NCBI GenBank assembly: GCA_045122255.1
Contig: JBGVHJ010000014.1
Coordinates: 36,719 to 100,718, forward strand
Origin: Eubacteriales bacterium
GTDB taxonomy: Bacteria > Bacillota > Clostridia > Oscillospirales > CAG-272
DNA: 64,000 nucleotides
Direction: 5' to 3'
Shown here: positions 2,016 to 4,718 of the stretch, in pieces
Layout: every line of letters starts with the position of its first letter
Position numbering within the stretch: position 1 is the first letter of the stretch
Position numbers and translations under genes: made by a program
The notes under the pieces: generated by a model
What the model saw: the letters and a program-made list of their open reading frames with translations, nothing else
The model's database searches: none
What the model was told of the DNA's origin: nothing

Positions 2016-4718
2016 TTGAGGCGTTTTTTATCGGATTATGGTGAAAATATACGCATGGGCGCTGAGGGAGTGAGCGGACTTGTAAATCTTTCCGCGAATC
2101 TGCCTGACGGCGTGGATCTCGGCGAGGCGGCGCTGGCTTTCAATGCTATATACAGCCAAGGTAAGAGTGGCAAGGCGTTTTCTGCGGCCAAGAATATGGA
2201 GCTGCTCTCTCCCGAGCAGAGGCAGTACGCTTATAATCTCGGTATTATGGATAAAGTGCTGGATGGGGTGAGGGCGAAGAACGCAGCCGCCGAGATTTCG
2301 GGAGAAAATGACGGTAAGGTATTGCAAAAGGACGGCGTTGGTGATACAATAAAAGAAAATGAACAGGGGGATATAAATAGTGAACAACAAAAAGCAGAAC
2401 GAGCAGAAGCACAGTTTGCTTTTGACGGAGGAGCAGAAAGCAGAACTTTTGAAAGCACGAGCGGAACGCGAACAGAGGATGAAGACAGATCCCGAGTACA
2501 GGGCGAAGATAGAGGAACGTCGCAGAAAGTTGGAGGAGCACTCACCTCTGATAGGAGAATCAATAGACTAAATCCTAAAGAAATCAATGTTGATCTTTCT
2601 GATACCTTGCAGATAGACAAAGAGCACCTTCTTTATGAGCCTCAGCAAAAGTTAATCAATGAATACGGTATTGAGTGTTACATAATAAAAGAACGCTCAT
2701 GGCACAGGTCGTCTCCTGCCGGTACATATAAAGGCAAAGTTTATATGTCGGAAATCTTTTCGGGGAATTTGCTTGCAACGGTAGTGCCCCATGAAGCTAC
2801 ACACGCAATGAAGCAACTTAATTATCAGCCTTACCTTGATTTGATAGATAGGCTTCCCGATATGTTAGATATGTCTGCAGAGGCTACAGAAGATATGTTC
2901 AATTGGATAGCGGGACATTGTGGTTTTGATTTCCTTGCTATGAGCAGATCGGAAGGTATGCACTTTTATGACGAAATGAATGCTGCAATATATGGTTTCT
3001 ACAAAACCTCGATGTGGGAAAGTGACGGATATGCAGAATGGGTACCTAATGCTTTCTATGACTTTGATTCATATATCGCAGAGCTTGAGGCGATTCACGA
3101 GCAATTCAAAAAAGATATTCAAGCGCGCAAGGTTGAATCATATAAGCAAGTTGATAGCACTACCTCCGATGTGCAGCAGGCGAAAAGCGATCAGGCAAGC
3201 TCATCGGAGTGGGATGCAGAGAGGATCAAGGACGGAAAGGTAGAGAAGGCGAAGCCGATTTCTGAGATCATCGAGCGGATCCGTCACGATTTCGGGATCC
3301 ACATCACCAAGGGTCACGTGCGCGGCAAGGGTGTGCTGGGCCAATACAGCCGCAAAAATCACGGCATCAGAACGAAGATCGCCAACGATCTTCCAACAGT
3401 GGCACACGAGCTTGGTCACGCTCTTGATCAAAGATACAGTCTTACCGACAAGAGCAAGCTGACGAAGGAGATGCGCTCGGAGCTTATAAACGCCCTGGGC
3501 GACCTGAAGGACTCATACAAGCAGAATTTGTGGGTAAGTGAGGGCTTTGCGGAGTATCTCAGACGTTTCCTTCAGAACAGAGACGACGCGACGCGGAGCT
3601 ATCCCGAATTTACAAAGCATTTTCTTAATTCGCTGTCAAAGGCTGACCGCGTTCTTATGGACACCTTTGCCGACGAGATCAACGCATATTACGCTTTGGA
3701 TGCTGATACGGCGACAAGCTCGATCAGGCTCCGCGAGGAGGGAACACCCGACGCGAGAACTGCTCTTGAAAAGGCGAAGGAGATGGGCGACGGTGTATAT
3801 CAGGCTTGGGTGGATGCTAACCACGGTATAAGGCTTTTTGACGAGGCTACGGGTGGAGACACTTACAAGCTTGCCGCAAATGCGGCTTACAGCGACGCTA
3901 TTGCCGGGCAGATCATTACAGGGGATCTTACCGACGCTAACGGTCAATACGTAAGAATACTTACTGTTTCTTCGTTAGAGAGAGAGTCATTGCAAGTCAC
4001 AAAGTTAATTGGAGTTTCAAAAGATAAATTTGAATCTAAATATGGAACAAAAAAAGAAAGAGACACAGGTAGTCTGAGGGGACAAACTGATAAAACAGAC
4101 ATCCCGAACCCTTCTACGAAGGCTCAGCACACCGCTGGTGCTCTTTCCACTATTAGTATACCACAAGAAAAAGGAAATGTCAACAAGAAAATTTCGACAA
4201 ATTCTGAAAATGCAAAATCGGATGCTTGGTCTAAGGTTGATGAGATCATAGAATCTACGATCGACGACGTGCTGGTGCAGTACGGCCAGGGAAAGGCTCA
4301 CGGCGACGTAGTGACGGTTTTGCGTGACGGTAAGGAGGAGTTCTGGAAGATAAACGATCCTAAGAAGTTAAATTCTCTCGATGTTGAATTTAACAAAAAG
4401 AACCGAGTTATTGTGGCGCAATTTGCTTCAAAGGAAGCCATTGCAAATACTCCACATTCTCCTCGGTTCAATAACAGTATACCACCTTCTGGCGAAAATG
4501 TCAATAGGAATTTTTCGACAAATTCAGAAATGGGCTCCCATTCTATCTCCACTATGCTTGAGGCGAGGTTTGGGCCCGGTGTCAATGATTATCTCAACAC
4601 CTTTATAAAGGACCTGAACGGCGCGAAGGCGCAGAGTGGCGGCGTTGTAGGCGGAGCGTTTTTTATAAATATATATACCATGTTAACCATTTCTTCATTA
4701 TTTTTTGTTATAATATAA
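2016..4718 (+). CDS. Mosaic or remnant phage-type large polyvalent protein with two zincin (HExxH) metallopeptidase-like domains; true start uncertain (possibly ATG 2055)
   Basis: VVPHEATH and TVAHELGH...EGFAE motifs; two 'SIPxxxxNVNxxxS' linkers typical of polyvalent-protein module ends; alternating GC-rich and AT-rich segments; no good RBS at TTG 2016. Confidence 0.6.
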   Translation: MRRFLSDYGENIRMGAEGVSGLVNLSANLPDGVDLGEAALAFNAIYSQGKSGKAFSAAKNMELLSPEQRQYAYNLGIMDKVLDGVRAKNAAAEISGENDGKVLQKDGVGDTIKENEQGDINSEQQKAERAEAQFAFDGGAESRTFESTSGTRTEDEDRSRVQGEDRGTSQKVGGALTSDRRINRLNPKEINVDLSDTLQIDKEHLLYEPQQKLINEYGIECYIIKERSWHRSSPAGTYKGKVYMSEIFSGNLLATVVPHEATHAMKQLNYQPYLDLIDRLPDMLDMSAEATEDMFNWIAGHCGFDFLAMSRSEGMHFYDEMNAAIYGFYKTSMWESDGYAEWVPNAFYDFDSYIAELEAIHEQFKKDIQARKVESYKQVDSTTSDVQQAKSDQASSSEWDAERIKDGKVEKAKPISEIIERIRHDFGIHITKGHVRGKGVLGQYSRKNHGIRTKIANDLPTVAHELGHALDQRYSLTDKSKLTKEMRSELINALGDLKDSYKQNLWVSEGFAEYLRRFLQNRDDATRSYPEFTKHFLNSLSKADRVLMDTFADEINAYYALDADTATSSIRLREEGTPDARTALEKAKEMGDGVYQAWVDANHGIRLFDEATGGDTYKLAANAAYSDAIAGQIITGDLTDANGQYVRILTVSSLERESLQVTKLIGVSKDKFESKYGTKKERDTGSLRGQTDKTDIPNPSTKAQHTAGALSTISIPQEKGNVNKKISTNSENAKSDAWSKVDEIIESTIDDVLVQYGQGKAHGDVVTVLRDGKEEFWKINDPKKLNSLDVEFNKKNRVIVAQFASKEAIANTPHSPRFNNSIPPSGENVNRNFSTNSEMGSHSISTMLEARFGPGVNDYLNTFIKDLNGAKAQSGGVVGGAFFINIYTMLTISSLFFVII
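2322..2350 (+). promoter_or_regulatory. Internal sigma-A promoter embedded in the polyvalent ORF
   Basis: TTGCAA-N17-TACAAT with extended -10 TG; RBS AGGGGG (2365-2370) and GTG (2380) follow. Confidence 0.6.
2380..2571 (+). CDS. Overprinted 63-aa charged helical protein in an alternative frame
   Basis: Has its own promoter and RBS 9 nt upstream; sequence is protein-like (LTEEQKAELLKARAEREQRMKTDPEYRAKIEE). Confidence 0.55.
   Translation: MNNKKQNEQKHSLLLTEEQKAELLKARAEREQRMKTDPEYRAKIEERRRKLEEHSPLIGESID
4049..4150 (-). ncRNA. Candidate antisense structured sRNA 1 (three-way junction, U-tract end)
   Basis: GAAAGAGCACCAG pairs with CUGUGUCUCUUUC, followed by U7; inner CUGAG/CUCAG stem; hairpins CCUUCGUAGAAGG and GGGA...UCCC; promoter directly upstream. 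Confidence 0.5.
4155..4183 (-). promoter_or_regulatory. Antisense sigma-A promoter 1 within the polyvalent ORF
   Basis: Minus strand TTGACA-N17-TATACT with TG extension. Confidence 0.7.
4395..4471 (-). ncRNA. Candidate antisense hairpin sRNA 2 (U-tract end)
   Basis: GAACCGAG/CUCGGUUC closing stem plus UGUGG/CCACA, GCAAU/AUUGC and GCUUC/GAAGC stems, followed by UUUUU. Confidence 0.5.
4476..4504 (-). promoter_or_regulatory. Antisense sigma-A promoter 2 within the polyvalent ORF
   Basis: Minus strand TTGACA-N17-TATACT with TG extension. Confidence 0.7.

Follow-up and report, generated by a model that had tools for sequence, protein, structure and literature searches.

The window analysed here (64,000 nucleotides of an Eubacteriales bacterium; GCA_045122255.1, contig JBGVHJ010000014.1, positions 36,719 to 100,718) carries on its plus strand an open reading frame (ORF), P0001, and within this ORF two putative transcription units on the minus strand, each composed of a near-consensus promoter, a predicted RNA with mutually paired ends and a run of U residues. 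Units of this layout recur in large polyvalent genes of many gut phages, and are discussed below as candidate small RNA (sRNA) genes nested in coding sequence. The features are as follows (aa, amino acids; nt, nucleotides).

2016-4718, plus strand: host ORF P0001 (900 aa), a truncated polyvalent MuF-type gene holding both antisense units
4183-4178, minus strand: -35 hexamer TTGACA of unit 1; sense codons aaT GTC AAc, read as N-V-N
4163-4155, minus strand: extended -10 element of unit 1, TGG (4163-4161) and TATACT (4160-4155); sense codons AGT ATA CCA, read as S-I-P
4148-4055, minus strand: predicted 94-nt RNA of unit 1, with closing stem, CUGAG/CUCAG stem and two hairpins
4055-4049, minus strand: U7 tract of unit 1, directly after the closing stem; sense codons AAA AAA, read as K-K
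4504-4499, minus strand: -35 hexamer TTGACA of unit 2
4484-4476, minus strand: extended -10 element of unit 2, TGG and TATACT; read as S-I-P of SIPPSGENVN
4469-4400, minus strand: predicted 70-nt RNA of unit 2, with closing stem GAACCGAG/CUCGGUUC
4399-4392, minus strand: U-run UUUUUGUU of unit 2, after the closing stem

Stretches 2053-2281 and 4493-4639 of the window are 91% and 93% identical in DNA, respectively, to a polyvalent ORF of more than 2255 aa on C73 of the same genome. The backbone of P0001 breaks off after '...AQSG'; as the gene lacks its initial portion and the larger share of its backbone, P0001 is regarded as a remnant. No family match to P0001 was obtained in Pfam, PHROG or NCBIfam; sequence matches in the PDB comprised Cas12i only (E 0.03, 15.9 bits), taken as chance. 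Two HExxH motifs are present, and P0001 is assigned to the polyvalent proteins by these motifs together with the 91-93% DNA identity to parts of C73. The C73 paralogue (P0002; MuF_C and PBECR3) and a metagenomic ORF of 3287 aa (L014; MuF_C, PBECR3 and LPD3) are themselves large multi-domain proteins with the LPD, PBECR or MuF-type modules by which polyvalent proteins are recognised. An exhaustive HMMER search returned 3134 relatives of the C73 backbone, many of them 2000-4700 aa long; in nearly all of the 150 best relatives the backbone is uninterrupted at the place where C73, P0003 and the window hold an inserted module, and this module terminates in a SIP...NVN linker. According to the main text of Iyer et al. 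2017 (PMC5512222), polyvalent proteins are giant mosaic proteins of phages and conjugative elements, encoded by highly mosaic genes; MuF-C and PBECR are treated there as predicted RNases (BECR fold), and MPTase-type autoprocessing is proposed. The host genes of the units belong to this class (MuF_C, PBECR3 and LPD3 modules; temperate phages), and are also akin to the MuF polymorphic toxins treated in the main text of Jamet et al. 2017 (PMC5576092).

In unit 1, the -35 and -10 hexamers are separated by a spacer of 17 nt, and the -10 box is followed by a 6-nt discriminator (AATAGT) and a likely start at G4148. Compared with housekeeping-sigma (sigma-70/sigma-A) promoter elements, 11 of the 12 hexamer positions agree, with TGG, the 17-nt spacer and a G start at +7. 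On the plus strand the promoter is read as SIPQEKGNVN in ORF 2016-4718; that these codons are the reverse complement of TTGACA-N17-TATACT with an extended -10, as the initial annotation had stated, can be read directly in the sequence. In the fold, the 5' arm GGAAAGAGCAC (4148-4138) pairs with GUG(U)CUCUUUC(U) (4066-4055), and the inner CUGAG/CUCAG stem surrounds the two hairpins; the predicted layout of the transcript (paired ends, inner stem, two hairpins, U7) is correct in each detail that the sequence allows to be checked. Exact matches to TTGACA-N16-18-TATACT are found twice in the window (4183-4155 and 4504-4476), both on the minus strand, against an expectation of 0.02; two matches were reached in 0 of 100 shuffles of the window. 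Unit 2 (4504-4392) repeats the layout of unit 1 with a different RNA body, and the DNA common to both units consists of the promoter block and the next few codons, nothing more.

Recurrence of this layout was surveyed in 65 polyvalent ORFs (530 kb), including 62 viral loci fetched via the backbone protein. A unit was counted where a promoter-like site was followed by a closing stem of at least 9 pairs and a T-run; at least one unit was found in 43/65 ORFs, mostly exactly one in each. On the antisense strand, stem and T-run follow 23/24 promoter-like sites with 11/12 matching positions, 2/4 sites with 12/12 and 20/34 sites with 10/12; in sense orientation they follow 0/20 sites with 10/12, and there are no sense sites with 11 or 12. 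The corresponding null frequencies are 3.8% at random antisense positions and 9.6% (47/488) at the genome's own sites with at least 11/12. A search blind to the promoter (stems of at least 12 pairs, 45-130 nt apart, followed by a T-run) returned 47 antisense stems and 0 sense stems; a promoter with at least 10/12 ends 3-12 nt upstream of 35 of these 47, and the distribution of promoter scores is bimodal. On the antisense strand the T-run stands after the stem in 47 cases and before it in 7. Within the 62 viral ORFs (511 kb) 41 units were counted, all antisense, and just 5 weak ones in 556 kb of flanking phage DNA. The stem starts at the predicted start site, with offsets of 6-7 nt in 39/45 good units. 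All told, 71 candidate units fall into 28 sequence clusters, the stems of which differ, the promoter block alone being common. The claim that the promoter is coupled to a discrete, hairpin-closed RNA with U-run is borne out by this survey, as far as sequence can tell.

C73, L012 and L014 hold many further antisense consensus promoters inside polyvalent genes, each with an end-paired RNA and U-run and with unrelated bodies; in C73 and L014 the units even have a second terminator hairpin. More units were seen elsewhere in the genome of the window, at C110 near 25875 (minus strand), at C75 near 2102 (plus strand) and at C73 2068-2097 (minus strand); the last has an 18-nt spacer and a TATAAT read as Y-Y, and is located after a PBECR3 domain. 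A scan for further variants of RNA cluster 8 returned only the three contigs already in the set.

A mobile palindromic element, of the kind of Rickettsia palindromic elements or miniature inverted-repeat transposable elements, was considered and rejected. Such elements occur as many near-identical copies with shared terminal inverted repeats; no near-identical copies with common terminal inverted repeats were found among the 71 units of 28 clusters. Readings as integron attC-like or retron-like elements or as an intein were likewise rejected (no reverse transcriptase, no core sites, no intein ends). Programmed frameshifting, with the sense A-run as slippery sequence and a downstream hairpin, was rejected because the heptamer fits unit 1 only, and not units 2 or 3.

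Fold stability was compared with dinucleotide shuffles and with codon-shuffled controls, the latter keeping the protein and the codon usage of the gene itself. The minus strand of unit 1 (4042-4149) folds at -34.8 kcal/mol (z -2.87 versus dinucleotide shuffles; 2/200 as good), and unit 2 reaches z -5.33 versus dinucleotide shuffles and z -3.42 versus codon-shuffled controls (2/500 equally stable). Across 17 non-redundant units the z score versus codon-shuffled controls is negative in 17/17 (mean -2.58). Of the two strands, minus gives the more stable fold in 16/17 of these, a count biased toward minus as the detector allowed G-U pairs on that strand. Closing stems have 8-19 pairs, and a run with at least 5 T in 7 begins 0-2 nt beyond them, as in intrinsic terminators. 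Searched against Rfam 15 at gathering scores, the whole window gave no match; with E relaxed to 10, stretch 3950-4650 gave 5 matches, all of 12-19 bits against cut-offs of 39-70 and none credible.

Base pairs within the RNA-body clusters have changed on both sides with pairing kept in 10 cases, are kept by a one-sided change in 9 and are broken in 9, several of the broken ones stemming from uneven unit boundaries. In cluster 8 (three sequences), 4/59 bases vary and form two compensatory pairs, the encoded residues changing with them; in the closing stems of clusters 5 and 6, A-U to G-C and G-C to U-A swaps are seen. Most one-sided changes convert minus-strand G-U to G-C or A-U, and in the plus strand would count as mismatches.

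The sequence of the promoter block bears on whether DNA or peptide is conserved. TTGACA, a 17-nt spacer and frame 0 are shared by 45/45 good units, with -10 boxes TATACT (22 units), TACACT (19), TATAAT (2), TACAGT (1) and TACAAT (1); in a sequence logo of the units the hexamers are invariant, the spacer is free and a pyrimidine-purine start 'tAGA' is conserved. Searched for without regard to codons, S[IV]x6V[KN] came up in 31 distinct DNA versions, and 24 of them combine AGT, ATA/GTA, an eighth codon ending in T and GTC, against a fraction of 0.0005 expected from codon usage (AGT, ATA and GTC account for 9% of Ser, 9.6% of Ile and 25% of Val codons in the 65 ORFs, respectively); of the remaining versions, 5 spell TTGACT and 2 resemble chance peptides. 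That synonymous sites preserve the hexamers and the 17-nt spacing had been set beforehand as a test, and the 24/31 versions agree with it. The promoter is also found in another frame with another peptide (NYYTPNSTVLST in C73 and L014), and in yet another case in C110 (SIPQKSDLST, with a 16-nt spacer and the -35 box read as L-S-T). The earlier proposal that conservation of the linker reflects a promoter and not a peptide is favoured by the rare codons, invariant hexamers, fixed spacing, free spacer and other-frame copies alike. Promoter, start-site stem, inner hairpins and U-run are conserved jointly, strand-specifically and in a manner confined to these genes, and their upkeep costs the gene both preferred codons and peptide sequence. 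As some residues past the hexamers recur too, the promoter may share the site with a peptide function.

At the level of peptide, S-[IV]-x6-V-[KN] occurs 95 times in 73/150 representative relatives (reversed pattern, 38 times) and usually has K-K about 30 residues upstream. The wording of the linker in the initial annotation was too narrow: it recurs as S-[IV]-x6-V-[KN], and the exact SIP...NVN...STNSE is rare. As a degenerate-codon pattern, SIP-x4-[ND]VN-x4-TNSE was found in 0/400 other genomes of the family and in none of the IMG/VR viral contigs; there are 2 stretches in genome contigs (1 real, 1 with stops) and 3 in metagenome contigs (1 real, 2 with stops), and the real instances over all collections number 5 (two in the window and one each in C73, L012 and L014). 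A combined search of genome contigs for linker and backbone gave 186 pattern matches, none of which was confirmed. A recurrent form of the motif, ...NAKKE...(about 28 aa)...SI[AS]xLLx[FY]VN-xYFPD[IV]LPE, in which S-I...V-N looks like the first helix of a conserved domain, was seen in P0005, P0016, P0024, P0066, P0074, P0107, P0123, P0129, P0132, P0137, P0145, P0149 and others.

Units are located about 25-55 residues after the ends of MuF_C, PBECR3 or LPD3 domains, in ORFs of 900-4002 aa; the position given to the linker by the initial annotation, just after recognisable polyvalent modules, was found again here. RNA bodies are unrelated after modules of one and the same Pfam family (LPD3 in L018, L022, L045 and L014; MuF_C in C73 and L044), which fits a role in which complementarity comes free. 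A tyrosine integrase is encoded in 3/5 phage records, including both of the 2 complete ones, which marks these phages as temperate.

A phylogenetic footprint is provided by L012, a contig of a metagenome-assembled genome of another species that covers the orthologous chromosomal locus (BspA-type gene with 68% and dUTPase gene with 84% identity alongside). The polyvalent remnant of L012 is broken by stops and a frameshift with its units intact, and corresponds to a single open frame in the window (2016-4718 versus L012:3576-7640). In unit 1, identity to L012 starts at the -35 hexamer; 5/17 spacer positions differ, the RNA has 5 differences (95% identical), and identity is lost just beyond the U-run, which itself has a substitution and a 1-nt gap, the flanks being unalignable. 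In unit 2, 8/17 spacer positions and 1 position of the RNA body, in a loop, differ. Both hexamers are kept in either unit.

Some further traces were noted at this locus. The remnants of the window and of L012 share an odd 3' junction (...TMLTISSLFF and ...AMLTIS*LFF, respectively). Unit 1 of the window (4150-4215, compared with L012:6871-6899 and L012:7205-7258) looks like a fusion, with the body of the L012-6899 unit and the promoter spacer and upstream flank of the L012-7233 unit; deletion by recombination between two promoter blocks would give this composition. At L012:6729-6757 (minus strand), directly past the terminator of the unit 1 homologue, lies a 12/12 promoter with TG, in a sense frame with stops; the RNA after it has a closing stem AGGUC/GACCU and a weak U-run.

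Relatives of the RNA bodies were also found among sequencing runs, four of which were examined, all as Logan contigs, which carry no strand, start or end and are silent on transcription. In a bovine-gut DNA run (X4), contig depth rises from about 4 to 63-95 over both RNA bodies (4040-4151 and 4376-4487), 15-25 times that of the rest; over the unit 1 stretch 4040-4151 it is 63-88, and the X4 contigs share only the RNA-body blocks, with different flanks. An X4 contig of 11.2 kb and depth 78 matches only 4048-4147, with 12 differences. One loose-end consensus from X4 continues with an in-frame TAA and a TATATT -10 box.

From these data, the units are very probably functional transcription units and real sRNA genes. 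A near-consensus housekeeping-sigma promoter (TTGACA, 17 bp, TAYACT, often with TGn) inside the S-[IV]-x6-V-[KN] codons would start transcription at a purine 6-7 nt past the -10 box; in the resulting transcript of 50-95 nt, the first 8-19 nt would pair with the last 8-19 nt around one or two inner hairpins, and termination would occur in the U-run that is read as Lys codons on the sense strand. This stable hairpin RNA would be a constitutive product of host RNA polymerase, for instance in a lysogen, and would have its perfect complement in the linker part of the sense mRNA. The polyvalent gene, which is late and potentially harmful, could then be silenced in cis, by loop-loop pairing followed by duplex cleavage or block, until strong late transcription outruns the antisense RNA. 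Full complementarity to the sense mRNA, free sequence of the bodies, a constitutive host-type promoter and temperate phages make cis-antisense silencing the most economical role. That it is the main role of the predicted sRNAs is given somewhat less than an even chance; for the whole reading, in which each unit is a complete, selected minus-strand sRNA gene in linker codons that silences the polyvalent gene in cis, we would put the probability at roughly 0.5.

Several observations weigh against this reading. No unit was detected in 22/65 polyvalent ORFs at the threshold used. Many of the 62 viral loci are close relatives from few samples, so that independent instances number only about 17 for RNA-body clusters and 31 for promoter versions; the frame-0 units could also all descend from one ancestral promoter block. 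The plus strand of unit 1 folds about as well as the minus strand (z -3.15 versus dinucleotide shuffles), so that minimum free energy alone cannot name the strand. Versus codon-shuffled controls, unit 1 reaches only z -1.68 (22/500 equally stable); folds stronger than such controls, which the initial annotation had called for, are thus seen for the 17 units together and weakly for unit 1 by itself, and as unit 1 is unconvincing when taken alone, recurrence carries the case. Between its arms the closing stem holds 40-70 nt, inner hairpins included, unlike the short-loop, G+C-rich hairpin of a standard terminator, and a consensus terminator scan called only the inner hairpin 4127-4104 of unit 1 and missed the closing stem. 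The predicted target is a linker at least one third of the way along a very long ORF, far from any start codon and not a ribosome-binding site, so that the manner of silencing is not obvious, and both ends of the RNA are locked in a stem. Units persist in two remnants, the pseudogene of L012 and the truncated gene of the window; whether these still offer an intact target in cis is doubtful, and a role beyond cis silencing is suggested. Contigs from RNA libraries (X19 and X20) overlap 4105-4162, 4395-4485 and 4476-4643 at 80-99% likeness, and are unstranded relatives.

Other roles for the RNA can be set against cis silencing. The RNA may act on a protein, as an immunity factor or decoy resembling a type III antitoxin; it would bind, or be cleaved by, the RNase-type module beside it (PBECR, MuF-C) or a host factor, and may be encoded next to its module so that both shuffle together. 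Units do stand directly after PBECR3 and MuF_C, predicted BECR-fold RNases according to the main text of Iyer et al. 2017 (PMC5512222); each RNA forms a compact, stable structure in which both ends are paired, the units are discrete, with a second terminator hairpin in C73 and L014, and they persist where the gene is broken. On the other side, bodies after same-family modules share no sequence, and inspection of 17 folds by eye revealed no loop motif common to them; LPD3 is without known activity, and the modules of the window itself match no family (P0001 versus Pfam and NCBIfam). Action on a protein is rated as rather unlikely. Alternatively, RNAs from prophages or chromosomal remnants might pair in trans with the polyvalent mRNA of incoming relatives, as superinfection exclusion or as a domesticated defence. 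In favour of this, units persist in the truncated gene of the window and in the pseudogene of L012, at an orthologous site between a BspA-type leucine-rich repeat (LRR) gene and dUTPase. The full-length gene resident on C73 contains no match to the body of unit 1 or of unit 2, and these bodies do match far more abundant contigs of a gut DNA run with different flanks, such as the 11.2-kb contig. On the other side, the whole segment 4154-4489 is about 92% conserved, beyond the RNAs alone, so that recent common descent suffices as an explanation, and an identity of 88% may be too low for efficient antisense pairing; action in trans is held to be quite improbable.

The DNA or the act of transcription, and not the RNA, could also be what matters, either because a strong head-on promoter with an immediate stop interferes with or pauses sense transcription at module borders, or because the promoter block of about 30-50 bp is a homology patch for module shuffling. 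The composite origin of unit 1, which joins the L012-6899 body to the L012-7233 spacer and upstream flank, the promoter block as the only DNA common to the two units of the window, and the mosaicism of polyvalent genes (main text of Iyer et al. 2017, PMC5512222) speak for it; recombination alone leaves unexplained the perfect hexamers around a free spacer, the compensatory changes in stems, the U-run placed exactly after the stem and the onset of the stem at the predicted start (offsets 6-7 in 39/45 units), and this explanation is deemed unlikely. Conservation of the linker as peptide, for example as a protease site or a helix, with promoter, hairpin and U-run as by-products that drive no effective transcription, would account for the single frame of 45/45 good units and for the recurrence of residues past the hexamers, such as x-x-[FY]-S-[LD] after V-[KN]. 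SIxxLLxxVN-xYFPDILPE in many representative proteins looks like part of a folded domain, and MPTase-type autoprocessing of polyvalent proteins is proposed in the main text of Iyer et al. 2017 (PMC5512222). The rare codons in 24/31 versions (expected 0.0005), the promoter in other frames with other peptides, the hexamers kept in L012 despite the broken frame and the compensatory stem changes that alter the peptide all run counter to it; selection on the peptide should moreover remove a strong spurious promoter synonymously, and not add a terminator. We consider this account decidedly improbable, and a purely peptide explanation unlikely. Elements of several readings might be combined: modules may travel as two-part cassettes of a protein module and its own sRNA gene, placed on the opposite strand of the linker, as silencer or immunity factor, with the promoter block as swap joint, and decayed cassettes may be kept by bacteria because the RNAs of these cassettes still act against incoming phages with the same linkers, a scheme that is speculative and, taken whole, fairly unlikely.

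Phages and transposons offer well-known antisense RNAs (OOP, RNA-OUT, type I antitoxins), with which cis-antisense silencing by the units can be compared. Lambda OOP, a phage RNA of about 77 nt, has a constitutive promoter and an intrinsic terminator to itself; it is transcribed against the 3' part of a coding region and is believed to reduce its target mRNA via duplex cleavage. The units resemble it as short antisense phage RNAs with their own, here predicted, promoter and terminator; OOP is a single unit at one gene end, whereas here the whole RNA gene including its promoter lies inside an ORF linker, units recur with unrelated bodies over a protein family, and the promoter dictates a peptide motif. 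IS10 RNA-OUT, about 70 nt long, is an antisense RNA whose promoter lies within a gene of a mobile element; it has a long, very stable stem and pairs with its target through its loop. It covers the start of the transposase mRNA and blocks ribosome binding. The base of its stem is likewise formed by the 5' and 3' regions, but the present units lie deep inside the ORF, after a module. In prophage type I toxin-antitoxin systems (txpA/RatA, bsrG/SR4), a constitutive antisense RNA overlaps the 3' side of a harmful gene in convergent orientation, and in RalR/RalA the 'toxin' of such a type I pair is an enzyme. Likeness to type I systems is by geometry alone, namely a cis-encoded antisense RNA, here fully inside the sense ORF and after a module; there is no small (less than about 60 aa) hydrophobic toxin or separate toxin gene, the target being one module of a 900-4002-aa ORF, and the RNAs of the units are shorter (50-95 nt). 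In the type III system ToxIN, ToxI consists of tandem repeats on the same strand upstream of the endoribonuclease toxin, and is processed by the toxin and neutralises it. A structured RNA encoded next to a (predicted) RNase is the point of likeness, and ToxIN is the model for a protein-acting RNA; the units differ in being single, on the opposite strand, downstream of the module, without repeats and with their own promoter and terminator.

In full-text literature searches, nothing was found on antisense RNAs or promoters in polyvalent or MuF genes. The main texts of PMC5512222 and PMC5576092 never use 'linker' or 'promoter' and describe no RNA component of polyvalent or MuF proteins; 'antisense' is absent from the main text of PMC5576092, and PMC5512222 is not among the papers that hold both 'polyvalent protein' and 'antisense'. 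Deposited phages gave two short chance-level matches to the DNA of one of the two units and none to the other, and a single unannotated 4.8-kb fragment with the backbone protein, with no cultured system among them. The apparent novelty is that a complete RNA gene sits within a linker, that such genes recur from module to module throughout a large protein family, and that their promoter shapes a peptide motif.

Few phage proteins are as large or as poorly understood as the polyvalent proteins, which are believed to be injected as weapons against the host. If the cis-silencing reading is correct, a built-in RNA control for each gene or module would explain how temperate phages tolerate polyvalent genes, and a handle would be gained on how polyvalent modules shuffle. 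An extra layer of RNA genes would exist inside coding sequence, invisible to searches confined to intergenic regions; S-[IV]-x6-V-[KN] preceded by K-K would exist because of a promoter and terminator on the opposite strand, which would call for caution in reading conserved linkers as protein features. The prediction is sharp, namely discrete minus-strand RNAs of 50-95 nt with defined ends.

The genomic neighbours of P0001 are ordinary (GDSL lipase, BspA-type LRR, dUTPase and CobW genes). Promoters of the window's genome (2.4 Mb) seem to be unusually near consensus, many with TGn; 201 matches at 12/12 and 287 at 11/12 to TTGACA-16..18-TATAAT were counted in it. At 10703-10742 of the window (minus strand), adjoining a gene for an AraC-type regulator, lies a perfect TTGACA-17-TATAAT with TG, the -10 box of which sits in a 9-bp palindrome (GTGCTATAA...TTATAGCAC) followed by a T-run.

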